From: an uncultured Ponticaulis sp.
Lineage (GTDB): Bacteria > Pseudomonadota > Alphaproteobacteria > Caulobacterales > Hyphomonadaceae
DNA: 64,000 nucleotides
Direction: 5' to 3'
NCBI GenBank assembly: GCA_963678615.1
Contig: OY782947.1
Coordinates: 2,118,688 to 2,182,687, forward strand
Shown here: one piece after another, positions 3,867 to 46,319 of the stretch
How the letters are laid out: each line of letters begins with the position of its first letter
How positions within the stretch are numbered: the stretch's first letter is position 1
Program-made: the position numbers and the translations under genes
The notes under the pieces: generated by a model
The model's database searches: none
What the model was told of the DNA's origin: nothing
Seen by the model: the letters and a program-made list of their open reading frames with translations, nothing else

Positions 3867-6800
3867 ATGAAACATCTATCTCTGCGTCAGTCGATTTGTT
3901 CGAGTGTTGCTCTCAGCACACTTGTTCTCGCTGGCGGCGCATCATTTGCACAAAACGATGCCGACGCACCAGTCGTCATCGAAGAAAAGAAAACTGAAAA
4001 AGAAGCTCGTCAGGAAAAAGTCGTAATCACCGGCTCTCTTCTGGCACGTGACGAGTTCACTTCTGCTTCTCCAGTTCAGGTTATCACTGCTGAAGTTGCA
4101 ACTCTTGAAGGTCTGGTTGATACAGCTGACCTCCTCCAGGGGTCGTCGCTCGCAGCTGGCGCAACTCAGCTCAACAACACTTTCCAGAACTACGTTACAA
4201 ACGGTGGTGTTGGTACGCAGACTCTCGACCTTCGCGGTTGCGGTGACACACGTACGTTGGTTCTGATCGATGGTAAGCGCCCAGGCCCTGCCGGTACGCG
4301 TGGCTCAGTCTCTGCGTTCGATCTGAACAACATTCCTCAGTCTATCGTTTCCCGTGTGGAAATTCTGAAGGATGGCGCGTCCACGATTTACGGTTCTGAC
4401 GCAGTTTGTGGTGTTGTTAACGTCATCACTCGCGACTCAGTTGACGGTCTTGAACTTAACTTTACCGGCTCCGTTCCAGAGGAGTCCGGTGGCGAGAACT
4501 TCCGCCTGTCTGGTGCTTACGGGTTTGACTGGGGCGACAACGCTAGCTTCACAATCTCCGGTGAGTATCGCAAAAGCGCTGAGCTGAACATTGGTGACCG
4601 GTCTTATCTCGAATGCCCTGTTGACCGTGTAACCGATCCGCTGACCGGCAATCGTATTGACCGCCTGAACTATTCCGCAACAGCAACGGATCCGATGCGG
4701 AGCTGTTCAAACCTCTACCACAACACAGTGCTTGACTACACCGAGGTGCTTGCTGGTATATCTAACCAAATCTATCGTCTGATCCCGACTCCGGACGGCG
4801 TTGAAGCGCCAACTCCTTGGGGGGTCTTCATTCCGGGTTATCGTCCGCGTCCGCTTGCTGGCACAGGATATAATGCTGAAGGTCAGCCTTACTACGAAGA
4901 TATCCTAGACGCACCATTCCTGCGCAGCATCGACTTTGCCCCAGAGCAGGAGAACATCTCCCTCTTTGGTACCGCCGACGTAGAATTTGGCGGCCTGGTC
5001 TGGGATACAGAGATCCTCTACAACCGCCGTACGACCAAAGTTGATGGCTGGCGCCAGTTTGCACCTTTCGTAGGTGACGGGAACAACATCTTTGGGTCGC
5101 CATCTGTTGGTTATGCTTCTGATCCGACCTATTCCAGCGGTGCTGGTACGATAGTTCGTCCGATCCTGACCTTCCAGGATTACAGTGAATTTAAGATCGA
5201 CTACTTTAACGCGTCGACCTCTCTTTCTGGTGGTTATGGTGACATTGACTTCCTGTCTGACTGGTCCTGGAAAGTAGATGGTACATTCTCTCGAAGCAAA
5301 GGTACCTATGGGCTCACCCAGATCCTCCTTTCCAAGTCTGGTGACTGGAACTATCAAGGTGAAGACTGGGATGGAGACGGTACGCCGAACGTGATTACGC
5401 CGCCAACCATTGACTATCTCGATCCGGATGTCCTCAACGGTACACGCCAAGCTGAGCTCCGTGACGCCGTCACAGCATGGGATGAAGGCGAAACCATTTA
5501 CGAGCAGACAATTTTCACCGCAACAACCGCTGGTGAGCTCTTTGATGTGTATGCAGGTCCGGTCGGCCTCGCGCTCGGTCTTGAATATCGCGAATTCTCC
5601 ATTGATGACACGCCAGGCAAGTACACGCTCGAGGGCGATGTCTGGGGCCGTTCTACAGCTGGACCAACCCGCGGTGATAACAAGGTATTAGAGTATTTTG
5701 CTGAGACCAGTATTCCGCTGCTCAAAGGCATGCCATTCGCTGAAGACGTTGAACTATCTGCTTCCTGGCGTGGGTTCGATTATGATCTTGGTGGCTCAGA
5801 TTCGATCTACAAGATCGGCTTGAACTGGCAGATCAACCCGGTCTTCCGCGTCCGCGCAAGTCAGGGCACATCTTACCGTGCACCAGCATTGTTCGAATTG
5901 TTCCTGGAGGATCAAACAGGCTTCGTCGATCAGGGCTTTGACCCATGTGTCGAATGGGGCCAGAGCAACAACCCAAATATCCGTGCGAACTGTGCTGCTG
6001 CAGGTGTGCCGGACAATTATGGTGGGTCTACAGGTACAGCGCTCGCAATTTCCTCTGGTGGCGGCACCGATCTCAAACCGGAAACAGGTGATACCTTCAC
6101 CGCCGGTATCGTGTTCACGCCAACGTTTGCTGACCTGAACATCGCACTCGATTACTACGAGATCGAAATTGACGATCAGATTGCAAGCCTGTCTGCAGGT
6201 CAGGTTGTTGGTGGTTGTTATTCCGCTGAGACTTATCCGAACTACTTCTGCGGTCTGTTTGAGCGTACACCAGGCGGACAGACGGGTGCCTATGGCCTCG
6301 ACAATATCCGCACACCAACTCTGAACGTTGATAGCCAGCAACAGCGTGGTATCGACCTCGAAGTTCGTTACGAGAAAGAGTTCAACTTCGGTATCCTGAC
6401 TGTGGACCTCGGCATGAACTGGGCTCTCGAGCGTTATGTCAACGTCTTTGGTGCAAACGTAGTGTCCGGTATTGATAATAACGACTTCAACGGAACGATC
6501 GGCTACCCAAGCGTTGTTGGTGATGTTCTCATCACATTCGACCGTGGTGACTGGACCTATTCCTGGTTCACCGACTATGTCGGACATCAGGACGACAACC
6601 GTTACTTCAACGCTGATCTGAATGAACCACAGGGCTATTTCAATAGTGTTGGTTACTATGATTCAGCAACCGAAGCTCAGTTCACTCACGGTGCATCTGT
6701 TCGTTGGGAAGGCGACACATGGACCTTCGCTGGTGGTGTTCGCAACATCTTCGACGAGCACCCACCTGCAGTGTCTCCGGACGTTGCAACGACGAGCGCA

Positions 6801-6878
6801 GGTAACGTTCCGCTGTCAGCAACCCAGTACGACATACTCGGTCGCACATTCTTCTTCTCGGTTTCAAAAACTTTCTAA
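3867..6878 (+). CDS. TonB-dependent receptor (about 1003 aa)
   Basis: Signal peptide, EKVVITGS TonB-box region, plug motifs LRGCG...TLVLIDGKR and RVEILKDGASTIYGSDAVCGVVN, C-terminal GRTFFFSVSKTF. Start at ATG 3867 after SD aaagggg. Confidence 0.95.
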   Translation: MKHLSLRQSICSSVALSTLVLAGGASFAQNDADAPVVIEEKKTEKEARQEKVVITGSLLARDEFTSASPVQVITAEVATLEGLVDTADLLQGSSLAAGATQLNNTFQNYVTNGGVGTQTLDLRGCGDTRTLVLIDGKRPGPAGTRGSVSAFDLNNIPQSIVSRVEILKDGASTIYGSDAVCGVVNVITRDSVDGLELNFTGSVPEESGGENFRLSGAYGFDWGDNASFTISGEYRKSAELNIGDRSYLECPVDRVTDPLTGNRIDRLNYSATATDPMRSCSNLYHNTVLDYTEVLAGISNQIYRLIPTPDGVEAPTPWGVFIPGYRPRPLAGTGYNAEGQPYYEDILDAPFLRSIDFAPEQENISLFGTADVEFGGLVWDTEILYNRRTTKVDGWRQFAPFVGDGNNIFGSPSVGYASDPTYSSGAGTIVRPILTFQDYSEFKIDYFNASTSLSGGYGDIDFLSDWSWKVDGTFSRSKGTYGLTQILLSKSGDWNYQGEDWDGDGTPNVITPPTIDYLDPDVLNGTRQAELRDAVTAWDEGETIYEQTIFTATTAGELFDVYAGPVGLALGLEYREFSIDDTPGKYTLEGDVWGRSTAGPTRGDNKVLEYFAETSIPLLKGMPFAEDVELSASWRGFDYDLGGSDSIYKIGLNWQINPVFRVRASQGTSYRAPALFELFLEDQTGFVDQGFDPCVEWGQSNNPNIRANCAAAGVPDNYGGSTGTALAISSGGGTDLKPETGDTFTAGIVFTPTFADLNIALDYYEIEIDDQIASLSAGQVVGGCYSAETYPNYFCGLFERTPGGQTGAYGLDNIRTPTLNVDSQQQRGIDLEVRYEKEFNFGILTVDLGMNWALERYVNVFGANVVSGIDNNDFNGTIGYPSVVGDVLITFDRGDWTYSWFTDYVGHQDDNRYFNADLNEPQGYFNSVGYYDSATEAQFTHGASVRWEGDTWTFAGGVRNIFDEHPPAVSPDVATTSAGNVPLSATQYDILGRTFFFSVSKTF

Positions 6879-7047: not shown

Positions 7048-7695
7048 ATGGATTCAACGACAAATGAAGAACTGATACGAACGTATGATCAGCTAAGTGC
7101 TGACCCGTCGTTTCAGACTTCTCTGCCAGTACCGCCGCCAGACCCCATTCAGCCGGACCTGTCTTTTCTGAACGGAATTTTCGCCGCCATCGGGGCGTTT
7201 TTTGCCTTCATAGGCCCAGCCTTGTTCTGGATACTCGTCGTCGGAGGCATCGCCTTATTGTGCTTTGTCCTGTTCAGCATTGGCCGCGCCATTTATGAGC
7301 GTCGTGACCGACTGAACGCCTTGCTGAAAAAAGACGCCCCCGAAGATGTTCTTTCAACGATGGATGTTCGTCCGGACGAGCATTTTGCAAAGAACCTGCT
7401 TAGTGAGGCTGATAAGCTGGCCAGTGAAGGCCGCTATGGCGAGGCGATCCGCCTCCTCCTGCACTCATCCATCTCGGACATGCAGGAGCGTATTCACAAA
7501 CGCATCGGCGTTTCCCTGACGGCCCGGGAGATCGGCCAGCTCGGCAGCATTCCGGATGACTCCCGCAGCGCCCTGCACCGCATTATCTATACGGTCGAAA
7601 TCAACGTGTTCGGAGAACAGGACGTTTCCAGTGACGACTTTGTAAAAGCCCGTCACGACTACACTGTGTTCGCCTTTAAGGGTGACCGGAAATGA
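7048..7695 (+). CDS. DUF4129-like membrane protein, first gene of MoxR cluster
   Basis: N-terminal TM segments; A..LA..GRY.EAIRLL...SLTAREI pattern; context. Confidence 0.7.
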   Translation: MDSTTNEELIRTYDQLSADPSFQTSLPVPPPDPIQPDLSFLNGIFAAIGAFFAFIGPALFWILVVGGIALLCFVLFSIGRAIYERRDRLNALLKKDAPEDVLSTMDVRPDEHFAKNLLSEADKLASEGRYGEAIRLLLHSSISDMQERIHKRIGVSLTAREIGQLGSIPDDSRSALHRIIYTVEINVFGEQDVSSDDFVKARHDYTVFAFKGDRK

Positions 7696-8918
7696 GCGGG
7701 AACTCGACCGCATCCAATGGTGTTTTTTCCTGGAAAGCCGGACTGATCGTTCTGGTCATCGGCATTTTCAGCTTTTCTGCCTTTATTGTGTTGTCTGCCT
7801 TTGCACCGGACCTTGAAGACAAGGATATGGCTGGCCTGCACGCTTTTTCGAAATCCGCGCTTGGCTATAATTTCTCCGTAAAGCTGCTCGAAAAGACAGG
7901 CTATCAGATCGATATCAGTCAGGATCCAGCTCGCCTGAAAGACAAGACCGGATATGGCATTCTTGTCCTGACACCTGAGGGCAGCCGCGATCTGTCTGAG
8001 ATGGAAGACATCAATTATGATCGCGCAGACCCGGTTCTGATCGTTCTGCCGAAGCGGTGGGGATCTGCTGACCCGAATATACGCAGCCATCAGGCGAGAG
8101 TCGGCGAATTGTCCCTCAATTCTGTCAGCCGTTTGCTGCAACCCGTTGATGACAGCTTTGGTATGCGCCGGGTACATGCGGTCAAGGAAGTCGATACGGC
8201 AATTGGCAGACTGCCCGTGACTTTCAATGATCGCACGCAATTGATCACCAGCGGCCCGATCGACACCATTATCGGAACCGATGAAGGCACCGTGTTTGGA
8301 CAGGTCACCGGACGAAACATTTATATCCTGTCTGACCCGGAACTGATGAACACGCATGGTCTGGCCCATATCGATAATGCCCGCCTGATGTTGATGATGT
8401 TCGAGGCTATCACCGGGAACGACAAATCCTTCCCGATCACTTTTGATACGACGATTAACGGCTTTGAGCGGTCACGAAACCTGTTGCAGCTCTTGTTCAA
8501 GCCACCTCTGCTTGGCGCAACGTTGTTTGCGTTTGCGGCCTCAATTCTGCTCGGCTGGGCGGCCTTTGTCCGGTTTGGCCGGGAGCCCGTGTCCAGACCA
8601 GAGTTTGCGACCGGCCGGGCCTCACTGATTGCCAGCACGGCAGGATTGTTCGAGCAAACCGCCAGAGAACACCTGCTCGCCAAACAATATGCTGACATTG
8701 TCGACCGGCTAACCGTCACAGAGCTTGGGTATCCGGACGATCTGACGCCTCAGCAAGTCCAGGACATTTTAAAAACAATCGAAACATCGCGCCGCGAAAA
8801 AGGCATTCAGGTCTCAGACAGACCCTCTGCCGATAACATTCACACTGCCGGTCAGTTTGTGAATTTCGCACGCGCCTACCACACTTGGAAAAGGGACATG
8901 AGTGATGAACGTAAGTGA
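7692..8918 (+). CDS. DUF4350-like membrane-anchored protein
   Basis: N- and C-terminal TMs, [16 protein letters not shown] motif; overlaps both neighbours in the MoxR cluster. Confidence 0.72.
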
Positions 8919-9861
8919 ACTCAAGGAACTGGGAGAGAAGCTCAGCGCTGAGATCAGCAAAGGCGTCATCGGACAGGGCGACGCTGTCGATCTGATGCTG
9001 ATCGCACTGTTTTCAAAGGGCCATGTCCTGTTGGAAGGTCCACCGGGAACAGCAAAAACGTTTCTGGCGCAGTGCTTTGCTGCATGTCTGAACCTCGATT
9101 TCGGACGGATCCAGTTCACACCGGACCTCATGCCAGGCGACGTCATCGGCACCAATCTGTTCAATTTTCAGACCAATACATTCTCACTCACCCGTGGCCC
9201 GATCTTTACCGATCTCCTGCTAGCGGATGAGATCAACCGGACCCCGCCGAAAACGCAGGCCTCTCTGCTGGAAGCGATGCAGGAACGCCGGGTCACAATT
9301 GACGGCGAAACCTATGCGCTCGGCGATCACTTCATGGTCGTCGCAACGCAAAACCCGATTGAGCAACAGGGAACCTATCCACTGCCTGAAGCACAGCTCG
9401 ACCGCTTCCTGTTCAAGCATTTGATGAGCTATCCGGCTGAAGCAGACGAGATGAAGATCATCGAAGCTCATGCCCGGGGTGTTGGTATGCCAAAAGTTTC
9501 TGACCTTGGCATTTCAGCGGTTATGACGGGTGAACAGCTTGCCGTCGCCATCAACACCGTGCTCAGCATCACGCTGACGGATGAGGTGATTGCCTATATC
9601 ACCCGCCTTGTCCGCGCGACGCGCGAAACCCCTGCCCTGACTGTGGGTGTCAGCCCGCGTGCAGGCGTCAATCTCGCGATTGCGGCACGCGCACGCGCCG
9701 GGCTGAATGGCCGCGACTATGTGATTCCGGATGACGTGAAAGCTTTGGCATTGCCAGCCATGCGCCACCGCGTTGTCTTGTCGGCCTCAGCAGAGATTGA
9801 AGGCCGTACGGCGGAAGACATTATCGCAGGTATTATCGACCAGACAGAGGCGCCACGCTAA
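8905..9861 (+). CDS. moxR: MoxR family AAA+ ATPase
   Basis: Walker [21 protein letters not shown], Walker [32 protein letters not shown]. Confidence 0.96.
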
Positions 9862-9864
9862 CTC

Positions 9865-11172
9865 ATGCCGGTCATCATTCCATCCAGATTTGCCATTCTT
9901 TTGATGGCAATCGGCGTGCCGGTGGCATTGCTGATCGCGGCGATCATTCCGTCTGGATGGGTGTTTGCCTTTGCAGGCATTGCAGCCATCTTAGCCGCGC
10001 TGGTATTGGACAGTCTGCTATCTGCTTCAGCCCGCAAAATCAGTGTTGAGACCAAACTTCCACCGCTCTTCTTTGTCGGTGACGACAATCAGCTTTCCTT
10101 AAGCGTTGAAGCCAAGAGTGGTCGGGTGCCCAACAGCATTCAGATCAAACTGGAAATGAATGACCTCATTGAGGAAGAGCCGGTCCGAAACCTGCCCGCC
10201 GACAATGAGGCCCATTACAAGCTGAAAACACGCAAACGCGGGGAAGCGCGCATTGAGGCCGTATGGCTGAAATGGCCCGGCCCGTTGCGCATGACGGCAA
10301 AACAGATCCGCATTCCGCTCGCTCTGGCGCGACCAGTGAATCCGGATATTCGCACCATGCAGGCTGATGCCATCCGGCTGATCAACCGTGAGGCTGAGTT
10401 CGGGATGAAGTCGCAGCTGGAACGCGGCGATGGCTCTGAATTCGACGCCATGCGCGAATTCGTTCAGGGCATGGACCATCGCAGTCTCGACTGGAAAGCA
10501 TCTGCGCGCCACCGCACGCTGATGGCGAAAGAGTTTCAGACAGAGCGGAACCACAATGTGGTTCTGGCTTTCGATACAGGCCGATTGATGTGCGAACCCA
10601 TTAACGGAATTTCTCGTTTGGATCACGCCGTCCATGCCAGCCTGTTGCTGGCTTATGCGTCTCTGCGAGGCGGCGACCGGGTCGGCGTTTACGGATTTGA
10701 TGCTCGCCCTCAACTCATGACCGGTCTGGTGCGGGGCCAGAACGCCTTTGCCAAACTCCAGACCGAAATGTCCCGTCTGAACTATTCGACGCTGGACGCC
10801 AATTACACGCTTGGCCTGACGCGTCTTTCAAGTGCGCTCAACAGGCGCTCACTGGTCATTCTATTCACGGACTTTGTGGATACCACACAAGCCGAGCTGA
10901 TGATTGAGAACGCGGCCCGTTTGTCAAAACGACATCTCGTCCTATTCGCCGTGTTTCAGGATGAAGACCTGTACAATGTGATCTCAAAATCGCCGGAAAC
11001 AGCTGATGATGTGACACGCGCCGTTATCGCAGATGGCCTGCTTCACGAACGCCGAACGGTTCAGCGTCGCCTCCAGAGACTTGGCATTGAAGTTCTGGAA
11101 GCCCCGGCCAAACAGTTTTCAAGCGAGCTATTGAGCCGCTATCTCACCCTCACCCGCCAGGAACGGATTTAG
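9865..11172 (+). CDS. DUF58 (vWA-related) protein
   Basis: EFDAMREFVQG.DHRSLDWKASAR and NVVLAFDTGRLM; follows moxR. Confidence 0.92.
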   Translation: MPVIIPSRFAILLMAIGVPVALLIAAIIPSGWVFAFAGIAAILAALVLDSLLSASARKISVETKLPPLFFVGDDNQLSLSVEAKSGRVPNSIQIKLEMNDLIEEEPVRNLPADNEAHYKLKTRKRGEARIEAVWLKWPGPLRMTAKQIRIPLALARPVNPDIRTMQADAIRLINREAEFGMKSQLERGDGSEFDAMREFVQGMDHRSLDWKASARHRTLMAKEFQTERNHNVVLAFDTGRLMCEPINGISRLDHAVHASLLLAYASLRGGDRVGVYGFDARPQLMTGLVRGQNAFAKLQTEMSRLNYSTLDANYTLGLTRLSSALNRRSLVILFTDFVDTTQAELMIENAARLSKRHLVLFAVFQDEDLYNVISKSPETADDVTRAVIADGLLHERRTVQRRLQRLGIEVLEAPAKQFSSELLSRYLTLTRQERI

Positions 11173-11180
11173 GATCAGAC

Positions 11181-12182
11181 ATGAGTGCAGAAGCTGAACT
11201 CAAAAGTTATCGTTTCCGGTCTGAACGGGAAACCGAATGGCGTGCGCTGGAAAGCCTGTTGGAGCGCATCCAGAAATCAGGTGTAAAATCCCTGTCTCAG
11301 GAAGACTTGCTGGCGCTGCCCAAACTGTATCGGTCGGCGGTGTCTTCACTGTCGACGGCGCGTGCGATTTCGCTGGACCGCAATCTGACCGACTATCTGG
11401 AGACGCTCTGCACCCGGGCCTATCTGTTCATGTATGGTCCACGAACAACATTCTGGCGCAAGGTTGCAGACTTTTTCATGCATGACTGGCCAACCGCAGT
11501 CGCAAAGGCCGGGTGGGCAACGCTTCTGTCTGCGCTCTGCATGTTTGGCGGGGCGCTGATTGCTTTCATCATGGTGTCGAATGACCCGGACTGGTTTTAC
11601 GCCTTCCAGCTAAGCGCGGGAGATACGCGCACCCCAGAAGCCACGACCGAACAACTGCGCGCAACGCTTTATACCGAAGACCATGAGCTGAAAGACTCAC
11701 TTTCAGTTTTCGCCGCCTTTCTGTTCCAGAACAATTCCATGGTGTCATTACTGGCGTTTGCGCTGGGCTTTGCCTTTGGCATACCGACGGCCATGTTGCT
11801 GATCCATAACGGCTTTGTGCTGGGGGCGTTTGTCTCTTTGTTTGCGAGTCGCGGGCTTGGCTTTGAGTTGGGCGGATGGCTTCTCATCCATGGTGTGACG
11901 GAATTGTTCGGCATTGTACTTGCCGGGACAGCCGGGTTCCTGATTGGCGGCACGCTTGCCTTTCCAGGGGATCGTCGACGCATTGATGCCGTCGCAGAGG
12001 CCGGCAAACAAGCCGGAACCATTGGCATGGGCGTTTTGATCATGATGATGATGGCCGCATTCCTTGAAGGGTTCGGACGTCAGATGATCAATTCCGATCT
12101 GATCCGCTATACGATAGCGGGCACAACCCTACTAGCCTGGCTCAGCTATTTCTACATTTACGGCCGACGGAAATTGTCATGA
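11181..12182 (+). CDS. Stage II sporulation protein M-like membrane protein
   Basis: LYR....LS.AR, YL..L..RAY, F.NNS.VSLLAFALG, HGVTEL.GI.LAG, AAFLEGF. Confidence 0.9.
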   Translation: MSAEAELKSYRFRSERETEWRALESLLERIQKSGVKSLSQEDLLALPKLYRSAVSSLSTARAISLDRNLTDYLETLCTRAYLFMYGPRTTFWRKVADFFMHDWPTAVAKAGWATLLSALCMFGGALIAFIMVSNDPDWFYAFQLSAGDTRTPEATTEQLRATLYTEDHELKDSLSVFAAFLFQNNSMVSLLAFALGFAFGIPTAMLLIHNGFVLGAFVSLFASRGLGFELGGWLLIHGVTELFGIVLAGTAGFLIGGTLAFPGDRRRIDAVAEAGKQAGTIGMGVLIMMMMAAFLEGFGRQMINSDLIRYTIAGTTLLAWLSYFYIYGRRKLS

Positions 12183-13102
12183 GCAAAACCGTCGCTGCCC
12201 ATAAGGCCGGATATATCAACGAACGCGAAGCAAAGATGTGGCGGGAAGTCGTCACACCAGAAGGCGCGACCATCAATCTGAGGCTCGCAGACGCTGCCGA
12301 ACGCGCCGGTGCGCTGATGATTGATGCGGCCATCATGCTGGCCACGCTTATCGCCGTGGCGCTAGCGCTGATCTTTATGGCGTCGATCTTTAATTTTCAG
12401 GACGATATGTCGGAACTAATCACGGTGGTGTGGTTTCTGTTCTTCTTCGTTATGCGCGCCCTTTATTTCACCCTGTTTGAAATGGGACGACGCGCAGCCA
12501 CCCCCGGCAAACGCCTCATGCGATTGCGGGTCGTCGCGCGTGAGGGACGCCAGCTGACAGCCAATGCCGTGTTCGCCCGAAATGTAATGCGCGAACTGGA
12601 AGTCTTCCTTCCATTTATCGTACTGATGGGCGGTCCCGGCGACACACAGATTTCCGGGCTTTTGACTTTGTGTCTGATTGTCTGGCTAGGCGTATTCGTT
12701 CTGATGCCGGTGTTCACCAAAGACAAGCTGCGCGCCGGTGACATCGTGGCCGGCACCTGGGTGATTCGAAATCCAAAACTGGAGCTGGAGAACGATATTT
12801 CGTTGCAAAGCACCGCTCATGACGATGACTTCCGTTTCTCAACAGAACAATTGCAAGCCTATGGCGAACACGAATTACAGGTTCTGGAAGACGTGCTTCG
12901 CGGCGACAATATCGAAATTCAGGCTGCTGTTGCAGACCGTATCCGCAAGCGAATTGGCTGGGAAAAAGGGCCAAAAGAGGCCAACCGGGACTTCCTGGAA
13001 GCCTTCTACAAAGGCCTTCGCAAAACGCTGGAAACCCGCATGCTGTTTGGCAACCGCAAACGGGACAAACACGATGCCGGTGATGCCTCACGCCTGTCTT
13101 AA
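12179..13102 (+). CDS. RDD family membrane protein
   Basis: RAGALMID, TPGKRLMRLRVV, RNVMR, R.GD..AGTWV. Confidence 0.9.
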   Translation: MSKTVAAHKAGYINEREAKMWREVVTPEGATINLRLADAAERAGALMIDAAIMLATLIAVALALIFMASIFNFQDDMSELITVVWFLFFFVMRALYFTLFEMGRRAATPGKRLMRLRVVAREGRQLTANAVFARNVMRELEVFLPFIVLMGGPGDTQISGLLTLCLIVWLGVFVLMPVFTKDKLRAGDIVAGTWVIRNPKLELENDISLQSTAHDDDFRFSTEQLQAYGEHELQVLEDVLRGDNIEIQAAVADRIRKRIGWEKGPKEANRDFLEAFYKGLRKTLETRMLFGNRKRDKHDAGDASRLS

Positions 13103-17964: not shown

Positions 17965-19008
17965 TTATTTCAGAACATCTTCGGCGTCTGCGATTTCTAC
18001 ATCCCGCATCATGGCTAGGTATGCGTCCAGATAGCCTTTATGAGACGCGCCGACGATGACCAGCATACGGCTGCCTGGATGCGCACCAAAAGCCTCGCGA
18101 ATATTAGCCGCCATACGAAGGTTCCGTGTTTCCCAATAGGTCACATACTGACGTCCATATTGTCTTTCTGAAGGATCCGCCAAGGCTGCTCCGAAGTCAC
18201 GAGCATAGACTTGTTTCGGATATGCCGGATCATTGTACAGCCGATAGGCGTCCAAAACGCCTTCCGGCGAATACAATCCCGGTCCCCGGGCGTCAGCCTC
18301 CCTCTTCGAAGGTTCAGATGCCGCCGTATTCCAGGCCGCAGAAATCGCTTTACCGTAAGCGTCATCATCGTCAATTGGGATGGAAACGGCCTGATCATCA
18401 TATTGTACCACACGCTGCAGACCGAGCTGCACGGCCAACGGTGCGGCAATCCAATAATTCTCATTTCGTCGTCCGATCCGCGAGTTGAGATAGTCAACCA
18501 ATTCGGGCGTGAGCCGGTCACTTTCGATACGGTCTGCTTCCGCCAGATAGAGCCATTGTATCGTTGCAGAGACCGGATCACCGGCTGCCAGCATAACTGC
18601 CGCAAGGTTGCGGCGCATAGCTGGAGCAGGATCGGACGGCCAATCCGACAAAAGCCTTTCACGTTCTGCAATCGCAGCAGCCACATCCAGACCCGTGGCA
18701 ATACGGGCAGCTTTCGTATCCGGGCAGTACGTTTCTGCTTCATCAATGAATTCTTTCTGCCGGCGCATCAGATCGCATTCATCACCGGGTATTGACTCAA
18801 TGCCGATGATTTGCGGCCGCCAAGTTTCGAGGCGATCTATCAGCGGATCAAGATTTTCAATTTCAACATCTTCTGGCCAATAGGCGATATGCGGTGTGCC
18901 AAGCACCAACACTTCATTTGGCATGCGCGCACCTACCGCGTCTTGTGCATACACAACGCCAAGGGAATTGACCGCTGCCAGACTCCACAAAAAAAGTGCT
19001 CGTATCAT
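17965..19008 (-). CDS. Secreted DUF5694-like protein
   Basis: Signal peptide, VLVLGTPH, W..RNLRMAANI, LVIVGASHK. Confidence 0.75.
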   Translation of the reverse strand: MIRALFLWSLAAVNSLGVVYAQDAVGARMPNEVLVLGTPHIAYWPEDVEIENLDPLIDRLETWRPQIIGIESIPGDECDLMRRQKEFIDEAETYCPDTKAARIATGLDVAAAIAERERLLSDWPSDPAPAMRRNLAAVMLAAGDPVSATIQWLYLAEADRIESDRLTPELVDYLNSRIGRRNENYWIAAPLAVQLGLQRVVQYDDQAVSIPIDDDDAYGKAISAAWNTAASEPSKREADARGPGLYSPEGVLDAYRLYNDPAYPKQVYARDFGAALADPSERQYGRQYVTYWETRNLRMAANIREAFGAHPGSRMLVIVGASHKGYLDAYLAMMRDVEIADAEDVLK

Positions 19009-21221: not shown

Positions 21222-24200
21222 TTATAACGGACAACTGAGCGGGCTGTTCTCCCCGCCTGTGTTCTCATAGACCGTGAGCAAGTCGACAGCAGCAGCCGCC
21301 AATCGCCCAACACCCGCAAAGCAAGCAAGCCCAATCGCTTTGGCAATTTCACAAGCCATGCCCGCAATCACTTTCTGGACAGCAGGGGCAATGCCGCTCG
21401 CATCCATGAGGACCAGCGTGACGCTGACCGCTGCATACAATCGGGCAAGCCGCTGACCATAAGCGGCAACAATGCCAAGCGATGCACCCGCGATGCCGCC
21501 AATGGCACCGGTCCAGCCAACCACCATGATCAACAGGTTCAGGGCCGAGATAATCTCATCAATTTCTTTCAGCTGGCGCATAATGCGTTCTTCTTCGGCG
21601 CCGCCGCCGCTGCCATCGGAAAGCAGGCCATAAACTTCACCGGTTTCCCGGTCGACCGACCAGCTTGCCAGTGTCTGATAGTCCGACGCGGTGACATGAA
21701 TGGCCCCCTTGGGGAAGCGGGATTTGGCTTCTTTCTGGAAGCGGTGCCAGGCCGGTTCCATCTCCTCCGGGCCGGTCTCTCTTGCCGCCTTCAGGTCAAA
21801 GGCTGTCAGCTGTTTGCCTTGCAACAGACTGCGCGTGCTCTTTGAGAACAAAGCCGTTTCGCCATTGGCAAGTCGCAGGCTGGACAACATAGCCATTTCA
21901 ATCGCCGTGTTCTGATCTTTCGCCAGCGTGTAGGTTTTGCTGAACGGCATAATGTCGAGCTTGCGCACGAATTTGTCCGTTCCGATGACGGGATGCTCAG
22001 AATAATAGACCGTGCGAAGCCCCTGCTCAGAGAAGCAATAGCCCTCCCCCGCCCCTGGCATGGTGCGCGCCATAAAGGTAGCGAGCTCGCCCGGCAGATA
22101 GTCCACGCCCTCTTCCAGAACGGACATCATCTCATCGGCTGAATCGGCGTGGTCCTGTGAGGCCTGATACAAGTTCTCGACGCTGAGCTTTGCCTTCAAC
22201 ACATCATCCATCAGTGTCGAAATAGATGGTGCGGCCCCTTCAAACGCTATCAGATGTGAGCCGAACATTGCGCCATGGATCGCGCCGTAATCCTCTTCGG
22301 TCGGGGCATCGCCATTTCCGTCAAAACCCGCAATCAGGCGGGTGATGCTGTTACCCGACATGCGAACCGTGAGATAAATGCCCGCGATTTTCTTACCGAA
22401 GCGCTGAACGTCTGGCCGGGTGTAGTCGGCCTGAGCCGAGGCCGCACCGATCTTTGCTGTCACGATATGCTTACCGGCTGACTGATCCGGCGCACGATAA
22501 GATACCAGATATGGCAAGTCTGCCTCGCCAACTTCCAGATAGCGCGTCATCAGCGCTTCGATCTCGGACTGGTCTTCCTCGCTGACATTTACCGCTTCGC
22601 CGCCGGTTGCCCGCGCCATGGCGTCCATCACACTGTCAGCATTGCTTTCGCGACGCTTTTCCAGTTTGGACTTCACATCCATCATAATGGTCTTCGGACC
22701 ATTCGCGAGGCGTTCCAAAATGTCTTTTGACGGCCCGCCATTCACATCACCATCCGTGGCATAGACAATCAGGCTGTACTCACCTTGAGCGTATCTGGCG
22801 AGATTATGCCAAAGCGACGAATTCGTGCCCGTCACTGTGACTTTCGCGTCCGGGTGAATGGTTTTAGCAATTGCCTCAACGCGCTCGGACAAGGCTTTCA
22901 TCTGAGGGGCTTTACCGCCCCGAAAGGCCGTCGGCATGGAAAGCGACTCATCTGCCAGAAACAGAATATGGGGTGCGACTGAGGTATTATACAGACGAAC
23001 GGCAGCGGCTTGTTCCTGATCCGTGATGAGGAAGTCGCCAGCGCTCAGCCCATCGACCAGCTTTCCATTCTCATCGCGCGGCATGACCTTCAAACGTATA
23101 TCCGGAAAGTCCGTAGCTACCGTTTCAACGGTGACAGATCTGACGCGCCCGGCAAGGCCGCTCGGCTCCGGCGATGGCAGTTTCTCACCATTCTTGAGGA
23201 TCTCACCGGATTCTGTAACGGTGATGCGGTCCCCTTCCAGGGTGAAGGCATCCCCCATCCGGAACTTCTGATCCGGCTCGATAACTTCCCCGTCCAGCGC
23301 CTGCAAAGCCAGAACCGGAGAGAAGGTCCGCACATCTCCGATACGCGCACCGAGCATGGCAACGCTGTCCATTGCGGACTTAAAGCCGATACGAACTTGT
23401 CGCCCGGCAAGATCGTGACTGGTCCAGCGACCCTTCACCAGATCAATATGCTTATCGAGATCGTCATTCATTACCGCCGACAGTGTGATACTGACACCGG
23501 AACCGCCTGACAGTTTGCGGAAAGTCGTAGACGAATGACCGTCCGGCCAGGGTTTGAACTCACCATTCGGGCGAATCGGATCGGCGTAATAGCGCGTTCC
23601 GTCTTCTTCAGTGATTTCGACGACCGGCAGACCGCCCGTCCCTTTATAGCTGAGAACAGCATTTCCGATACGCGCCCTGGTATCGTCATCCAGCAACCCC
23701 ATGAGCTCCGGCGCGAGGGAGTCGATATCCCCTGCCTGTTCTTCAATGGTCGGCGGCGGCGGGTCCGTGTCAGGCTGGCCTAGGCGGCGCTTCCAGTCCT
23801 TTAGTTTGTCTCTGGAAAAATCAGGCTCGAAGGGTTGCTCATAGCTGCGAAAAAAAATGCCCTTTGTTTCGCCCTCATCAGGATTGTCGGCGTTAACGAC
23901 CCGCGCTTTGCGACCTGTCTTGCGGACAAGCTCAGCAAAGATTTCCGCCTTTTCCCGTGCGGTTCCTGCCCCGGCTCGTAAGGCTGCGCGTGTGCCTGTA
24001 TAGGCTTCATATCCATAGCGAAAACTGTTTTTCCGATTGGAGATCAGCCGGATCTCATCACGCACGAACCGGTGCAAGGCCTGTAGATCGCCTGCGGCAA
24101 CCAACCGGGCTGCGCGGCCCACTGTATGGTCGGGGCTGACGCGCAAAGCCGCCTGCACTTCGCGCCAGACAGAGAACGGCCCCGGCTCCGCCGCCGGTAA

Positions 24201-24323
24201 CGGCTCTTGCTTCTGACAGGCAGACAACGCTCCCGGCAGACCACCAATGACCACGCCTGTAACGCCGAGTTTCCATCCGCTGCCAAGTAAGGCACGCCTC
24301 GAAATACCGTTCAGTTCTGCCAT
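21222..24323 (-). CDS. Large Tat-exported lipoprotein (1033 aa): degenerate transglutaminase-like region, vWA domain, hydrophobic C-terminus
   Basis: SD gaggagga; SRRALL Tat motif, LSAC lipobox; ALRAGAGTAREKA...LVRKTGRKARVV; LFLADESLS MIDAS plus YATDG and ATGG; Gly-rich hydrophobic tail. Confidence 0.7.
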   Translation of the reverse strand: MAELNGISRRALLGSGWKLGVTGVVIGGLPGALSACQKQEPLPAAEPGPFSVWREVQAALRVSPDHTVGRAARLVAAGDLQALHRFVRDEIRLISNRKNSFRYGYEAYTGTRAALRAGAGTAREKAEIFAELVRKTGRKARVVNADNPDEGETKGIFFRSYEQPFEPDFSRDKLKDWKRRLGQPDTDPPPPTIEEQAGDIDSLAPELMGLLDDDTRARIGNAVLSYKGTGGLPVVEITEEDGTRYYADPIRPNGEFKPWPDGHSSTTFRKLSGGSGVSITLSAVMNDDLDKHIDLVKGRWTSHDLAGRQVRIGFKSAMDSVAMLGARIGDVRTFSPVLALQALDGEVIEPDQKFRMGDAFTLEGDRITVTESGEILKNGEKLPSPEPSGLAGRVRSVTVETVATDFPDIRLKVMPRDENGKLVDGLSAGDFLITDQEQAAAVRLYNTSVAPHILFLADESLSMPTAFRGGKAPQMKALSERVEAIAKTIHPDAKVTVTGTNSSLWHNLARYAQGEYSLIVYATDGDVNGGPSKDILERLANGPKTIMMDVKSKLEKRRESNADSVMDAMARATGGEAVNVSEEDQSEIEALMTRYLEVGEADLPYLVSYRAPDQSAGKHIVTAKIGAASAQADYTRPDVQRFGKKIAGIYLTVRMSGNSITRLIAGFDGNGDAPTEEDYGAIHGAMFGSHLIAFEGAAPSISTLMDDVLKAKLSVENLYQASQDHADSADEMMSVLEEGVDYLPGELATFMARTMPGAGEGYCFSEQGLRTVYYSEHPVIGTDKFVRKLDIMPFSKTYTLAKDQNTAIEMAMLSSLRLANGETALFSKSTRSLLQGKQLTAFDLKAARETGPEEMEPAWHRFQKEAKSRFPKGAIHVTASDYQTLASWSVDRETGEVYGLLSDGSGGGAEEERIMRQLKEIDEIISALNLLIMVVGWTGAIGGIAGASLGIVAAYGQRLARLYAAVSVTLVLMDASGIAPAVQKVIAGMACEIAKAIGLACFAGVGRLAAAAVDLLTVYENTGGENSPLSCPL

Positions 24324-24420
24324 GGTGGTCTCCTCCTCTTCCCCTGTTTTCACGTCAGAAACTTACAAAGCCGGACATTTTTTCTAAGCCCACCGAAGAC
24401 CTTTTACTTTCGATAGATCG

Positions 24421-24436
24421 TTGACGCGGACGTCAA
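24421..24436. promoter_or_regulatory. Palindromic operator TTGACG-CGGA-CGTCAA (LiuR-like)
   Basis: Perfect 6-4-6 inverted repeat between the two divergent Tat-lipoprotein genes. Confidence 0.62.
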
Positions 24437-33733: not shown

Positions 33734-35530
33734 TCAGCCAAGTAAATCCGCAGGCACTTTTACCGGGAAATCCAGCAATTGCTGGGCTTTGCCTTTGGCA
33801 AGCGGATCAATGCGGAGGCTGGCAAACTGACCGCCACCAAGCGAGTCTTTCAGATGAAAATTCAGGGCATTGAGGCCGGGCAGTTCGTAAATATCAAGCT
33901 GCGGGTTCACCGCGCCTTCATACTCATGCGCGAAATAGGTCATGACCGCGTCTTTGGTGAGAGCCGCGCGAATGTAAGGCAAATATTCCGGCTTGCGGGC
34001 AATGACGCCCACATTAAAGGCATCGCCCTTATCGCCTGACCGGGCCCAGGCAAGGTCGATCAGCTCTTTCTCAACAAAGCTTTCCTCGACCTTCGCGGTT
34101 TCTCCAGCGTCAGGGCGGTTGACCATAGACAGGTTGAACGGCGTTGCCGGGGCTGGACCGTCCACAGTGAACTCCTTGCCATCAAGGACCACAGTGGCGG
34201 GCACGCCTTCGGTCGGAACAGTGAAAGAGAACACCTTCATCACTGGCGTGATCTGTGCGCGCGCACCGAACCAGCATGTCGTACCAGCAGACATGGACGT
34301 GGCAGGCGCATCCCACTCCCGCACAAACACATTGAGCGCGGCTTCCTCGTCATGCTCCACAGCAAGCTTTGACATGACTTCACGCACATCACGGGCGCGC
34401 GAGTTTGCGCCATAACTTGATTCAGCCCCTATGGATTCAAGACGTTTGGCACGGAATGGGCCCATCTGACGATCGCGCAGCATTTCCTCAACGCGCGTGA
34501 TGATGGCCTCCATCTGGCGCTCTGCCTTCAGCGCAGCCTGACGACCGAGAACCGGCATAAAGGCCATACACCGATAGCCGTCCTTATGCGTCAGCGAGAC
34601 CTTGTAGCGCCCTGTCGCTGGATAGCCGATACAATTGGTAACGCGAACCCGGTTTTCGCCGGTTTGTTCCAGCTTCAGCTGCGTAAAATCACACACAACA
34701 TCCGGCAGCATATAGGCTTGCGGATCGCCAACTTCGTACAGTGTCTGTTCGGCGATCACGGCAGGCGTAATCAAGCCACCAGTGCCTGCAGGTTTGGCGA
34801 CCGTAAAGGCGCCATCCGCCTCGCACTCAACAATAGGATAGCCAATATGCGCCCAATCCGGCACGTCTTCCCAGTCAGTGAAGAGACCGCCCGAGCCTTG
34901 TGCACCGCACTCAATGATATGCCCGGCAAGAGAGCCCGCCGACAGCTTGTCCCAATCATCTTCTGCCCAGCCAAATTCATGCACGAGCGGGCCGAGCGTC
35001 AGCGCCGAATCCACCGCGCGGCCCGTGATAACAATATCAGCCCCAGCCGCCAGCGCTGCCGCAATCGGACGCGCACCAAGATAGGCGTTGGCCGTGACGA
35101 CCTTTTCTAGGTCCGGGAAGGCATCACCTTTAAAGAGCTCCGTCACACCGGCTTTTGCGAAATCGGGAACGCGCGGTAACAGGTCATCGCCCTCAACCAC
35201 GGCAATCTTGAAACTCAGCCCGGCTTCTTCAGCCATCGCTTTCATGCGAGCGACGCAGGCGCGCGGATTCAATCCGCCCGCATTGGTGATGAGCCTGGTG
35301 CCCGTCTCTTTCAGACGGTGCATATTTTCTTTCCAGATCCAGTCTACAAGGTCGAGCGCATAGCCGAGCTGGTCGTGCTTTGCCTTCATCTGTCCAAGCG
35401 CCGACATCGTCGCCTCAGCCAGATAATCCATCACCAGATAATCAACACCCGCTTCAATGAGCTGGCGCGGAGCGACGGAGGAATCTCCGTAAAAGCCACC
35501 CCCACCGCCAATCTTGATAATCTTGCTCAT
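33734..35530 (-). CDS. atuA: Acyclic terpene utilization AtuA family protein (DUF1446)
   Basis: GFYGDS, DYLAE, NAYLGA, GHIIECGAQ, C-terminal ARSGDKGD and IDPLAKG. Confidence 0.9.
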   Translation of the reverse strand: MSKIIKIGGGGGFYGDSSVAPRQLIEAGVDYLVMDYLAEATMSALGQMKAKHDQLGYALDLVDWIWKENMHRLKETGTRLITNAGGLNPRACVARMKAMAEEAGLSFKIAVVEGDDLLPRVPDFAKAGVTELFKGDAFPDLEKVVTANAYLGARPIAAALAAGADIVITGRAVDSALTLGPLVHEFGWAEDDWDKLSAGSLAGHIIECGAQGSGGLFTDWEDVPDWAHIGYPIVECEADGAFTVAKPAGTGGLITPAVIAEQTLYEVGDPQAYMLPDVVCDFTQLKLEQTGENRVRVTNCIGYPATGRYKVSLTHKDGYRCMAFMPVLGRQAALKAERQMEAIITRVEEMLRDRQMGPFRAKRLESIGAESSYGANSRARDVREVMSKLAVEHDEEAALNVFVREWDAPATSMSAGTTCWFGARAQITPVMKVFSFTVPTEGVPATVVLDGKEFTVDGPAPATPFNLSMVNRPDAGETAKVEESFVEKELIDLAWARSGDKGDAFNVGVIARKPEYLPYIRAALTKDAVMTYFAHEYEGAVNPQLDIYELPGLNALNFHLKDSLGGGQFASLRIDPLAKGKAQQLLDFPVKVPADLLG

Positions 35531-40267: not shown

Positions 40268-42247
40268 ATGTCAAAGCAGTATTGGAGCAGCGCGGCTGCT
40301 CTCATCCTCTGTGCAATGGGACTTAACTCTATCTATGCGCAGGAAACACATCCACCGGGAGACGATCACGACGATGAAGCCGTGATGCAGAAAGTGGTCA
40401 TCTCAACCACACGATCTGGTCGGCTGGCTCAGGATGAACCAATGAAAGTCGAAGTCATCAACCGGGAGGAAATTGAAGAAAAAGCCATTATGCGTCCCGG
40501 CAATATCGCCACCATGGTGAATGAAACCGGCGGCATTCGGGTGCAGGTCACCTCTCCCGCGCTTGGCGCCGCAAATGTCCGGGTTCAGGGGCTGTTTGGC
40601 CGATACACTCAACTGCTCGCCGACGGTTTACCGCTTTATGGCGGACAGGCCTCTTCTCTCGGATTATTGCAGATTCCACCAACTGATTTGCGCAAGGTGG
40701 ACGTGATCAAAGGCAGCGCATCATCCCTGTACGGGGCGTCCGCTCTGGGTGGAGTGATCAACCTGCTCTCACGCCTGCCGGGCGATGAAGCCGAAGGCGA
40801 AGTTCTGTTCAATGTGACGTCCCGCAATGGTCAGGATATCACGGCCTATTATGCAACCCCGATCAACGACCAGCTTGGCGTCTCGATCACGGGCGGCGCG
40901 CACAAACAGGGTCTGGAAGACTTCGACAATGATGGCTGGATCGACATGCCGTCATATGAACGCTGGACGGCCCGGCCTCGCCTGTTCTGGGACAACCATA
41001 ATGGCGCGAGCATTTACGCTACGCTTGGCTTCATGACCGAAGACCGGACAGGCGGCACCAGAGATGGCGTCGACGCGCCAGATGGTTTGCCTTTCGTTCA
41101 GGCACAGGACACAACCCGCCTTGATGGTGGACTGATTGGTCAAAAAGACCTCAGCCATGCACTGACCGCACAGGTTCGGGCCTCGGCCATGGTGCAGGAT
41201 CACACCCATCAGTTCGGCAGTGTGATCGAAGATGATGAACATCAAAGTTATCTGTTCGAAACGTCTCTGACGGGCGCCTATGACGCGTCAAACTGGGTTC
41301 TGGGCCTCGCCTGGCAATCAGATCGCTATACGTCAGACACCTTTCCAGACTTTGACTACACCTATGATGTGCCGGGTGTGTTTGGGCAATATGATCGCGA
41401 CATTTCCGACGATCTGACCCTGTCACTCAGCGCGCGCCTTGATGACCATAACGTTTTTGGCACGCAATTCAGCCCGCGCGTTTCAGCGCTTTATCGGCCC
41501 GGAAACTGGACGATCAGAGGCTCTCTCGGCAAAGGCTTCTTCGCGCCAACGCCCTTTGTAGAAGAGATTGAAGATGCTGGCCTCTCTCGACTGGACCCGT
41601 TGTCAGGTCTGGTCGAAGAAACGGCGAAAACGGCATCACTGGATGTCGGCTATCAGACAGGAGGCATTGAGACCAATCTCACTTTGTTCGCCTCAGATGT
41701 CGAGCATGTCACCGAACTCGAAGCCTATGCGAGCAGTCCGGGCGGCGTTGAAGACCGCGTCCGCCTCGTCAACACAAGAGGCACAACCCGGATTCGCGGC
41801 GCAGAGCTCTTGCTTCGCTATGTGTGGAATGACTTCAAAATCACGGGAAGCTATCTCTTCATCGACTCAAGTGAGCCAAGTGTTGCCGGCTCACCGAACG
41901 ATGAAATTCCGCTGACACCAAAACACTCAGCCGGCATGGTCGCCATGTGGGAACGCCATGGTGAATTCCGGCTGGGTATGGAGATGTACTATACCGGCGA
42001 GCAGCGCATTGACGACAGCCCGTTCCGGACGCGCAGCGACAGTTTCCTCGATATTGGTCTGTTGGGGGAGATCACAATCGGCCCGGCGAGCTGGTTTATC
42101 AATGCCGAGAACCTGCTCGATGTTCGTCAGACCCGTGAAGAGTCGATTCTGCGCCCGATCCGCACGGCGAGCGGTCGGTGGACGACCGATATCTGGTCAC
42201 GCAATGACGGTTTCATCGTCAATGGCGGCGTGCGTCTGAAATTCTGA
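40268..42247 (+). CDS. TonB-dependent receptor (659 aa), probably metal-related
   Basis: Signal peptide, HPPGDDHDDE, KVVISTTR, VDVIKGSASSLYGASALGGVINL, C-terminal GGVRLKF. Confidence 0.93.
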   Translation: MSKQYWSSAAALILCAMGLNSIYAQETHPPGDDHDDEAVMQKVVISTTRSGRLAQDEPMKVEVINREEIEEKAIMRPGNIATMVNETGGIRVQVTSPALGAANVRVQGLFGRYTQLLADGLPLYGGQASSLGLLQIPPTDLRKVDVIKGSASSLYGASALGGVINLLSRLPGDEAEGEVLFNVTSRNGQDITAYYATPINDQLGVSITGGAHKQGLEDFDNDGWIDMPSYERWTARPRLFWDNHNGASIYATLGFMTEDRTGGTRDGVDAPDGLPFVQAQDTTRLDGGLIGQKDLSHALTAQVRASAMVQDHTHQFGSVIEDDEHQSYLFETSLTGAYDASNWVLGLAWQSDRYTSDTFPDFDYTYDVPGVFGQYDRDISDDLTLSLSARLDDHNVFGTQFSPRVSALYRPGNWTIRGSLGKGFFAPTPFVEEIEDAGLSRLDPLSGLVEETAKTASLDVGYQTGGIETNLTLFASDVEHVTELEAYASSPGGVEDRVRLVNTRGTTRIRGAELLLRYVWNDFKITGSYLFIDSSEPSVAGSPNDEIPLTPKHSAGMVAMWERHGEFRLGMEMYYTGEQRIDDSPFRTRSDSFLDIGLLGEITIGPASWFINAENLLDVRQTREESILRPIRTASGRWTTDIWSRNDGFIVNGGVRLKF

Positions 42248-46272: not shown

Positions 46273-46319
46273 CGACACTCTCTCTCCAGTCGCGGGCCCG
46301 GCACCAACGCCCGCTTGAA

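Follow-up and report, generated by a model that had tools for sequence, protein, structure and literature searches.

A widespread family of predicted Tat-type lipoproteins with a transglutaminase-like segment, a vWA domain, and a conserved hydrophobic tail

What is the function of a 1033-residue bacterial protein that carries a twin-arginine translocation (Tat) type lipoprotein signal, a von Willebrand factor A (vWA) domain, and an Ala/Gly-rich hydrophobic tail, and that belongs to no named family? Its gene lies on the minus strand at positions 21222-24323 of a 64,000-nucleotide stretch of DNA from an uncultured Ponticaulis sp. (contig OY782947.1), the whole of which we refer to as the window. 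We tentatively favor, with somewhat less than even confidence, the view that this is a nonenzymatic, Tat-exported, lipid-anchored envelope scaffold or adhesin, which would bind a ligand through the metal ion-dependent adhesion site (MIDAS) of its vWA domain and use a disulfide-clamped tail as a second contact, either at a membrane interface or in self-association.

The N-terminal building blocks of the protein are familiar; its overall architecture, the C-terminal body of 300 residues, and the tail are without a described or structural relative. The protein is covered by no family in Pfam, NCBIfam, PADLOC, PHROGs, or the PDB, in line with the original prediction, made from the letters of the DNA alone, that the architecture is uncharacterized. 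A literature search returned no paper on the protein family, and Foldseek found no relative in the PDB for residues 600-1033.

A single long gene in a large, unnamed family

On the plus strand, the frame at 21222-24323 is riddled with stops; that reading was dropped, and the strand is corrected here to minus, where an uninterrupted open reading frame (ORF) spans 21222-24353. The likely start is the ATG at 24323, 6-8 nt behind a GGAGGAG ribosome-binding site, and the resulting 1033 residues equal the length of P0001, a database relative with 97% identity. The gene and the parts of its product are as follows.

21222-24323, minus strand: complete coding sequence, 1033 residues plus stop codon (21222-21224), as judged from the ORF list, the translation, the ribosome-binding site, and 47 full-length homologues
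24216-24323, minus strand: Tat-type lipoprotein signal, residues 1-36, with SRRALL at residues 8-13 (nt 24285-24302), a Gly-rich h-region, and the lipobox LSAC with Cys36
23664-24194, minus strand: N-terminal helical/α+β domain, residues 44-220, resembling a transglutaminase (TG) core, with the motifs SPDH, FVRD, and LRAGAGTxREKA; predicted local distance difference test score (pLDDT) 85-96
22974-23663, minus strand: β-rich region, residues 221-450, with two or three β-sandwich/immunoglobulin (Ig)-like domains according to DSSP on the AlphaFold2 model; the strand pair RDENGKLVDGLSAGDF leads into the vWA domain
22524-22973, minus strand: vWA-like α/β domain, residues 451-600, with the MIDAS motif set D458-x-S460-x-S462 (nt 22938-22952), S502, and D524
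21585-22523, minus strand: C-terminal body, residues 601-913, a β-sandwich (605-666) followed by an α/β domain; pLDDT 75-92
21225-21584, minus strand: Ala/Gly-rich hydrophobic tail, residues 914-1033, with four predicted helices, the pair C991...C1031, and a terminal SCPL

All motifs quoted in the original prediction were found: SRRALL, the LSAC with Cys36, the C-terminal SCPL, HRFVRDEI...ALRAGAGTAREKAEIFAELVRKTGRKARVV at residues ~83-145 (as FVRDEI...LRAGAGTAREKAEIFAELVRKTGRKARVV at ~86-145), RDENGKLVDGLSAGDF at 416-431, DESLS at 458-462 with S502 and TDG at 523-525, and WSVDRETGEVYGLLSDGSGGG at 888-908. They go beyond chance: in 48 homologues that span 23-97% identity, each of R9/R10, C36, the GAGT-x-REKA block, D458/S460/S462/S502/D524, G906/G907, and C991/C1031 is either invariant or conserved to at least 90%. 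The whole protein holds 37 invariant positions in one alignment (A1) and 19 in another (A2), and MIDAS residues are among them. The domain parsing proposed earlier, namely a Tat motif, a lipobox, a TG-like segment devoid of its nucleophile, and a vWA domain with an intact MIDAS motif set, likewise stood up to analysis. An AlphaFold2 model built on the 48-sequence alignment has a predicted template modeling score of 0.78, with pLDDT mostly 80-95 for residues 44-913 and below 50 for residues 1-43 and 914-1033.

A word-indexed search returned 47 homologues from Ponticaulis, Henriciella, and marine metagenomes; nearly all have 980-1060 residues, and every one of them is annotated as hypothetical. 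When 1.84 billion cluster representatives were searched with the family profile, 474 proteins matched at E ≤ 1e-30 and 710 at E ≤ 1e-10, which amounts to at least 474 clusters at 50% identity under the stricter threshold, with proteins nearly always of 1000-1100 residues; the best 150 matches are almost all full-length (980-1100 residues). A scan of one genome per species yielded 59 loci, a number that undersamples the family because the scan was seeded with a single peptide motif. Identity is 40-47% within the Hyphomonadaceae, 33% in Rhodothermales, and 34% in the haloarchaeon Haladaptatus; members at 26-31% identity come from Gemmatimonadaceae, Polyangiaceae/Myxococcales, Anaeromyxobacter, Actinomycetes, Chloroflexota, Planctomycetaceae, and Acidobacteriota. 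The statistics over members given below are not phylogenetically independent, and the motif counts are those of regular expressions run on ORFs with mechanically chosen starts.

The Haladaptatus litoreus member (locus L059, 5803-8910) is full-length and has the RR motif, the lipobox, the MIDAS motif set, DGSGGG, and a tail that ends in SCT. It is closest to a member from a Thermoanaerobaculia metagenome-assembled genome (46%) and then to halophilic Rhodothermales (39-40%), an affinity of an archaeal protein to bacterial ones that suggests horizontal transfer between domains. A truncated copy is found on a plasmid of H. pallidirubidus (L032).

From the signal peptide to the vWA domain

The N-terminus has the features of a folded-export lipoprotein signal. 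SRRALL, followed by GSGWKLGVTGVVIGGLPGALSA, fits the S/T-R-R-x-F-L-K type of motif before a weakly hydrophobic h-region, and LSAC with Cys36 fits the lipobox [LVI][ASTVI][GAS]C at the end of a signal peptide. R9, R10, and C36 are each at least 90% conserved among the 48 sequences, the RR motif occurs in 141/182 full-length members, and the Pfam TAT_signal and TIGR01409 models match several of them. The protein would thus take the Tat route, with probable acylation at Cys36. Myxobacterial members are without RR and retain a lipoprotein signal of the Sec type (...FAASAC|G); since the lipobox is kept in these members, as it is in Haladaptatus, lipidation appears to be a more universal feature of the family than Tat export.

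Residues 44-220 match Transglut_core (PF01841) just under its cut-off of 23 bits, scoring 19.4 bits over the full protein and 22.0 bits when the domain is taken alone. The match covers residues 81-152 and profile positions 19-84 of 108; at E ≤ 0.01 the model matches 5/48 members, and one distant member has a weak match to the TG-like, peptidase-like domain of CEP76. By motif alignment, the position of the catalytic nucleophile is occupied by Ala122, and over 182 members it is P (71), A (38), L (13), or V/M/F, never C. The His/Asp half of the TG core went undetected, the match stopping at profile position 84 of 108, and no TG or papain-like structure was among the top 50 PDB matches listed by Foldseek for the full-length model (E ≤ 0.22). 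Because both the nucleophilic Cys and the His/Asp half are missing from the comparison, this domain is best described, at the level of sequence, as a TG-like remnant that could not act as a Cys-dependent enzyme; the earlier proposal of a TG-like segment without a catalytic Cys is supported by the composition of the nucleophile position, the profile score being just subthreshold. A split TG core, in which PVVEITEEDGTRYYADP (residues 232-249) would serve as the His/Asp hairpin behind a helical insert, was considered and rejected: splicing out the insert (residues 150-223) in seven members raised neither the score nor the length of the match.

The β-rich region that follows bears a weak likeness to invasin Ig-like domains in Foldseek comparisons. 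A β-sandwich ahead of a vWA domain is also the arrangement in proteins of the TIGR03436 type. Five variants, P0105, P0135, and P0139 (1279-1307 residues), P0159, and P0182, match the family only from profile position ~385 onward, that is, over the last β-sandwich, the vWA domain, the C-terminal body, and the tail; their N-terminal regions of 420-660 residues are different, and Pfam recognized no domain in the N-termini of P0105, P0135, P0139, and others. The TG-like module therefore appears to be exchangeable.

The vWA domain retains an intact MIDAS motif set, as had been claimed for it. Among the 48 sequences, D458, S462, S502, and D524 never vary and S460 is conserved to at least 90%; the full pattern is present in 147/182 members. 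TIGR03436 matches 23/48 members (best E 2.2e-9), PF00092 matches the distant members P0042 and P0043 (E 1.6e-6), and the family profile aligns with the vWA domain of PDB entry 4cn8 at E 0.009; Foldseek pairs the domain with phage VWA-like domains (probability 0.94, rmsd 4.9 Å). Conservation of the motif set suggests that metal and ligand would be bound at this site. In A1, the Hyphomonadaceae/Rhodothermales clade has a gap of ~37 residues (columns ~638-676; window protein ~493-500, βB-βC/α2), and Gemmatimonadota, Myxococcota, and Actinomycetota members retain these residues.

The C-terminal body and the hydrophobic tail

The body contains nine invariant residues: Y609, Y634, G666, E695, D706, D790, E822, W859, and W888. 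It ends in a β-hairpin, WSVDRETGEVYGLLS-DGSGGG, whose DGSGGG turn (nt 21600-21617) varies between S, T, and R at the third position across the family. Searches with the body gave no match in Pfam at E ≤ 10 and none among PDB sequences, and the best Foldseek match of a domain-focused model had E 0.43 and probability 0.08. Two possible identities were examined and rejected. DGSGGG differs by inspection in order and spacing from the serine-protease GDSGG and the ASKHA DxGGGT motifs, and its third position is variable; a CHAT/caspase-like body rested on a weak match in only 2/48 members (E 0.004), with no conserved His or Cys and no support from Foldseek. Compared with BFVD, the full-length model matched best to uncharacterized giant-virus proteins (A0A248SJB6 and two from Terrestrivirus, ~800 residues) at E 7.7e-7 to 1.8e-4, over 430-670 aligned columns and with TM-scores of 0.11-0.14; these matches possibly reflect a shared β-sandwich/vWA arrangement.

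Outside the signal peptide, hydrophobic sequence is confined to the tail. A hydrophobic tail had been predicted, and there is one; it comprises ~120 residues with four helices (~915-941, 946-972, 980-1003, and 1006-1022 in two AlphaFold runs) rather than the ~80 residues proposed. Small-xxx-small motifs, the GxxxG-type feature noted earlier, are indeed enriched, but only modestly (16 per 124 residues in the tail versus 65 per 869 in the body). Four Cys had been assigned to the tail, which has three (991, 1001, and 1031); the fourth Cys outside the lipobox, C763, is an unconserved residue of the body. On the Hessa scale, the best 19-residue windows of the tail have insertion free energies (ΔG) of 1.4-8.7 kcal/mol, and those of the body are all at least 8.3. 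The first tail helix of the window protein, at ~1.4 kcal/mol, resembles a transmembrane (TM) helix; this protein is the hydrophobic extreme of its family, in which 109/177 members have no window below 3.5 kcal/mol and only the first helix nears a TM value. Such a window is absent from 87/145 Tat-type and 22/32 Sec-type members, and the median best-window ΔG is 5.2 kcal/mol in Sec-type versus 3.9 in Tat-type tails (p = 0.009; p = 5e-6 for the per-residue mean). The lower hydrophobicity of Sec-type tails is consistent with Tat export as a way around Sec stop-transfer, a comparison that is confounded by phylogeny.

The tail is also the most conserved region of the protein, with a majority-residue frequency of 0.66 versus ~0.57 for the body and 0.79 for helix 2 (SLGIVAAYGQxLARLYAA), which argues for a specific interaction rather than a mere anchor. 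Its Cys residues are distributed in a telling way. Their density is 2.0 per 100 residues as compared to 0.19 in the body, an enrichment of about 10-fold; the count is even in 137/167 members (two in 103, four in 31), with 12 members having none and three having one. In members with two, the first is part of [ML]AC[END] in helix 3 and the second follows at a distance of 37-43 residues, and the last Cys is within six residues of the C-terminus in 144/167. These statistics suggest a disulfide that would pin the C-terminus to helix 3 and place the end of the tail in an oxidizing, extracytoplasmic compartment. Six diverse tails matched nothing in Pfam at E ≤ 10 beyond noise, pore-forming, glycine-zipper, and toxin domains included, and nothing in PADLOC or PHROGs. 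A tail-only profile search, made to see whether the tail is a mobile module on other architectures, gave seven matches, all of them fragments of the same family, with a word index that is probably weak for a low-complexity query.

A gene without conserved neighbors

Within the window, its neighbors are a divergent amidase gene, Dus, and TauE to one side and GAF, SIR2, and DUF5694 to the other. This arrangement is retained in the 97% relative and in Ponticaulis profundi; in Henriciella litoralis and in a hydrothermal-vent lineage, the neighbors are wholly different. We clustered the ORFs of 65 loci all-against-all: the family itself was recovered in 60 loci, no neighbor family occurs in more than five, and four of the five loci of the top neighbor cluster are from Ponticaulis. 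With no conserved neighbor, the gene is a stand-alone unit whose product must act alone or with unlinked partners. The idea that it forms a system with the divergent amidase does not survive this comparison, given that the synteny holds at the level of Ponticaulis only, and the amidase partnership was rejected on comparative context. An origin in a defense system or a phage was set aside as well, there being no PADLOC match and no meaningful PHROG match.

A proposed lipid-anchored scaffold and its alternatives

What we observe here, namely conserved motifs, domain limits, a lack of catalytic residues and of partner genes, and the Cys statistics, leads us to posit the following pathway. The protein would fold in the cytoplasm, be exported by the Tat pathway, and become lipid-modified at Cys36, ending up at a membrane surface that faces away from the cytoplasm. 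The body would form a rigid multidomain stalk composed of the dead TG-like domain, the β-sandwiches, the vWA domain, and the domain that has no structural relative. The vWA domain would be the working part, with a divalent cation in the MIDAS completing its coordination through an acidic group of the ligand, much as integrin I-domains and CglB do; the TG-like domain, having no catalytic Cys, would be there for binding and not for catalysis. We infer the role of the tail from its conservation and its Cys residues: it would be a four-helix, Ala/Gly-rich domain on the oxidizing side, clamped by a disulfide between C991 on helix 3 and C1031, and would provide a second, specific attachment through insertion at the membrane interface or homo-oligomerization.

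Several points weigh against this proposal. The PDB matches of the window protein's vWA domain in Foldseek are generic flavodoxin-like folds, not PDB vWA domains, probably because the domain is shortened in the Hyphomonadaceae, with ~37 residues gone between βB and the S502 helix. The tail has pLDDT below 50 in both AlphaFold runs, the second, domain-focused one being no better, although low values of this kind would be compatible with a structure in need of a membrane or of oligomerization. The C991-C1031 disulfide is suggested by statistics only. The protein is without the repeats typical of adhesins, and its hosts are free-living in marine, soil, and hypersaline habitats, with no common lifestyle that would hint at a shared ligand. 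Finally, the invariant E695, D706, D790, E822, W859, and W888 would fit a catalytic or sugar-binding site as well.

This last point opens the way to an envelope enzyme, in which residues 670-913 would be a new hydrolase or carbohydrate/polymer-processing domain equipped with carboxylates (E695, D706, D790, and E822) and aromatic platforms (Y609, Y634, W859, and W888), and the vWA and TG-like domains would bind the substrate. The invariant positions of the 670-913 region are mostly Glu/Asp and Trp/Tyr, as is often the case in glycoside hydrolases and sugar-binding sites, and a domain that has no known relative leaves room for an activity; we find the idea rather unlikely in view of the lack of sequence or fold likeness to any enzyme family and of linked metabolic or transport genes in the 65 loci. 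Another unlikely arrangement has the protein doubly anchored in the cytoplasmic membrane, with the first tail helix (~920-945) integrated by Tat as an N-out/C-in anchor and the last ~85 residues left in the cytoplasm. Tat is able to integrate C-tail-anchored proteins (PMC10924467), the first helix of the window protein has a TM-like ΔG of ~1.4 kcal/mol, and the conserved Arg958 and Arg961 after the helix, together with acidic residues before it, would obey the positive-inside rule. Yet known Tat tail anchors consist of one helix near the C-terminus (PMC10924467), whereas ~85 conserved residues follow here; most members are without a window under the TM threshold; and the even-numbered, co-lost Cys residues point to an oxidizing compartment. 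A lipoprotein sorted to the outer membrane, as Gln at +2 would have it, also cannot sit in the inner membrane without spanning the periplasm.

The tail could, alternatively, be an effector module rather than a contact; the original prediction had named both a scaffold or adhesin and a membrane-inserting effector. In a latent membrane-inserting or pore-forming effector, Tat would export a folded protein with buried, disulfide-locked helices, and a trigger, be it a MIDAS ligand, disulfide reduction, or proteolysis at the DGSGGG hairpin, would free the tail, much as in the buried hairpin of pore-forming colicins or in saposin-like proteins. The tail is by far the most hydrophobic region as well as the most conserved one, is bracketed by one or more Cys pairs, and is set apart from the body by an invariant Gly-rich hinge (G906/G907); the less hydrophobic Sec-type tails would fit Tat as the carrier of a hydrophobic domain past the membrane, and the patchy spread over phyla and domains suggests horizontal transfer. 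We nevertheless regard this as quite unlikely: the lipobox ties the protein to its producer, no immunity-like or secretion gene is adjacent in any lineage among the 65 loci, the tail is conserved instead of polymorphic, most tails of either export type have no window below 3.5 kcal/mol, no toxin or glycine-zipper match emerged from Pfam, PADLOC, or PHROGs, and the correlation with the export route is confounded, Sec-type members being mostly Myxococcota. A bolder version, which we judge improbable, would make the family a new class of Tat-exported, lipid-anchored proteins with a redox-gated insertion module: the MIDAS would sense a ligand and the DGSGGG hinge would release the four-helix domain into the cell's own second membrane or that of a neighbor, to act as a tether or a pore, with residues 600-913 forming a fold unseen in the PDB. 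A multigene system, be it with the divergent amidase, with a MoxR-DUF58/vWA cluster ~8 kb away, or in antiphage defense, is largely refuted and highly improbable. The divergent transcription of the amidase gene across a shared intergenic palindrome and the presence of a MoxR AAA_3/DUF58-VWA_2/SpoIIM/RDD cluster at 7692-13102 speak for it, as does the frequent inclusion of vWA and TG-like proteins in MoxR systems; but no neighbor family recurs in more than five of the 65 loci, Henriciella and vent-metagenome loci have unrelated neighbors, MoxR is cytoplasmic while the protein in question is exported, and PADLOC has no match.

Comparison with known systems

The envelope scaffold that we prefer has partial counterparts, none of which accounts for the whole protein. 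TIGR03436 (acidobact_VWFA in NCBIfam) shares the strand pair (..D..G..V.GL...DF..) that leads into a vWA domain with DxSxS/TDG, but all matches fall far under its curated cut-off (~31 versus 81 bits); the model has 324 positions as against ~1030 residues, covers the β-sandwich/vWA part only, and lacks a counterpart of the TG-like N-terminal domain, the 300-residue body, and the tail. TIGR03436 proteins are likewise uncharacterized. The best-studied lipobox-anchored envelope protein with a vWA core is CglB, an outer-membrane lipoprotein adhesin of Myxococcus xanthus (PMC9946355), which we liken to the present family by description and not by sequence. The family differs from it in having no conserved partners and in possessing a hydrophobic tail. 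CglB has ~400 residues and consists of little more than one vWA domain; it cooperates with the Glt gliding machinery, whose genes lie elsewhere.

With PF01841 proteins, such as the membrane TG-like TgpA, the family shares the would-be nucleophile helix and its flanks (FVRDxI...G.R..LR.G.GT..EKA.....L.R..G..A..V; 22 bits), whereas the score is subthreshold, the nucleophile position holds Ala, Pro, or Leu and never Cys, and the His/Asp half is undetected. A twin-arginine signal, a large exported domain, and a hydrophobic C-terminus are likewise found in Tat C-tail-anchored proteins, among them HybO, HyaA, and FdnH and the actinobacterial examples of Gallego-Parrilla et al. (2024, PMC10924467). 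Those proteins have one TM helix next to the C-terminus (PMC10924467), unlike the four helices over 120 residues, the Cys pair, the marginal hydrophobicity in most members, and the additional lipobox seen here. BatA/BatB and other MoxR-associated vWA membrane proteins also attach a vWA domain to a membrane, and a MoxR-DUF58 cluster is present in the same window; they are, however, encoded in operons with MoxR and DUF58 and have N-terminal membrane helices, and linkage of this kind is unseen over the 65 loci.

At least several hundred clusters of a protein of ~1000 residues, spread over more than eight bacterial phyla and a haloarchaeon, have so far gone without a family name or a literature, and the C-terminal 430 residues have no solved or recognizable structure. 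Proteins that combine Tat export and lipidation at the N-terminus with a conserved hydrophobic domain at the C-terminus are rare, and the family, which is predicted to do so, is a test case for the transfer of hydrophobic domains across the cytoplasmic membrane in a folded state and for the use of vWA/MIDAS domains in prokaryotic envelopes. Genetics and biochemistry are feasible in cultured hosts, namely Henriciella litoralis, Ponticaulis profundi, Longimonas halophila, and Haladaptatus litoreus. A triggered insertion device in the tail, or a new enzyme fold in the body, would make the family a functional class of its own; a tail that is only an anchor would make the protein an ordinary, though unusually large, envelope scaffold.

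Other features of the window

One further element lies between the gene and the divergent amidase gene:

24421-24436, no strand assigned: 16-bp perfect palindrome TTGACGTCCGCGTCAA, intergenic, flagged as a stem-loop

The palindrome is identical in the 97% relative (locus L001) and partly retained in P. profundi (cTGACGcCtGCGTCAt). Its position makes it a candidate for an operator shared by two divergent promoters, and it may be functionally outside the protein family.

About 8 kb from the gene, an operon-like run at 7692-13102 on the plus strand begins with an ORF of 408 codons that has no Pfam match and continues with a MoxR AAA_3 ATPase (8902-9861), DUF58/VWA_2 (9865-11172), SpoIIM-like (11181-12182), and RDD (12179-13102) genes, of which the last two occupy the same relative position in L001. 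Linkage to a MoxR-DUF58 operon was not found among the conserved neighbors within 6-8 kb of the 65 loci. The DUF5694 gene (347 residues, 17965-19008, minus strand) has no called counterpart at the matching place in L001, apparently as a result of a local indel between close strains. No tRNAs were found in the window. The other ORF of ~1050 residues (3723-6878, plus strand), considered as a possible paralogue, encodes a TonB-dependent receptor without similarity to the protein; together with the ORFs at 40268-42247 (plus), 1527-3563, 44305-46278, and 33734-35530 (all minus), it contributes to a set of two TonB-dependent receptors, an S9 prolyl oligopeptidase, RpoD, and AtuA, an ordinary chromosomal context for a marine alphaproteobacterium.

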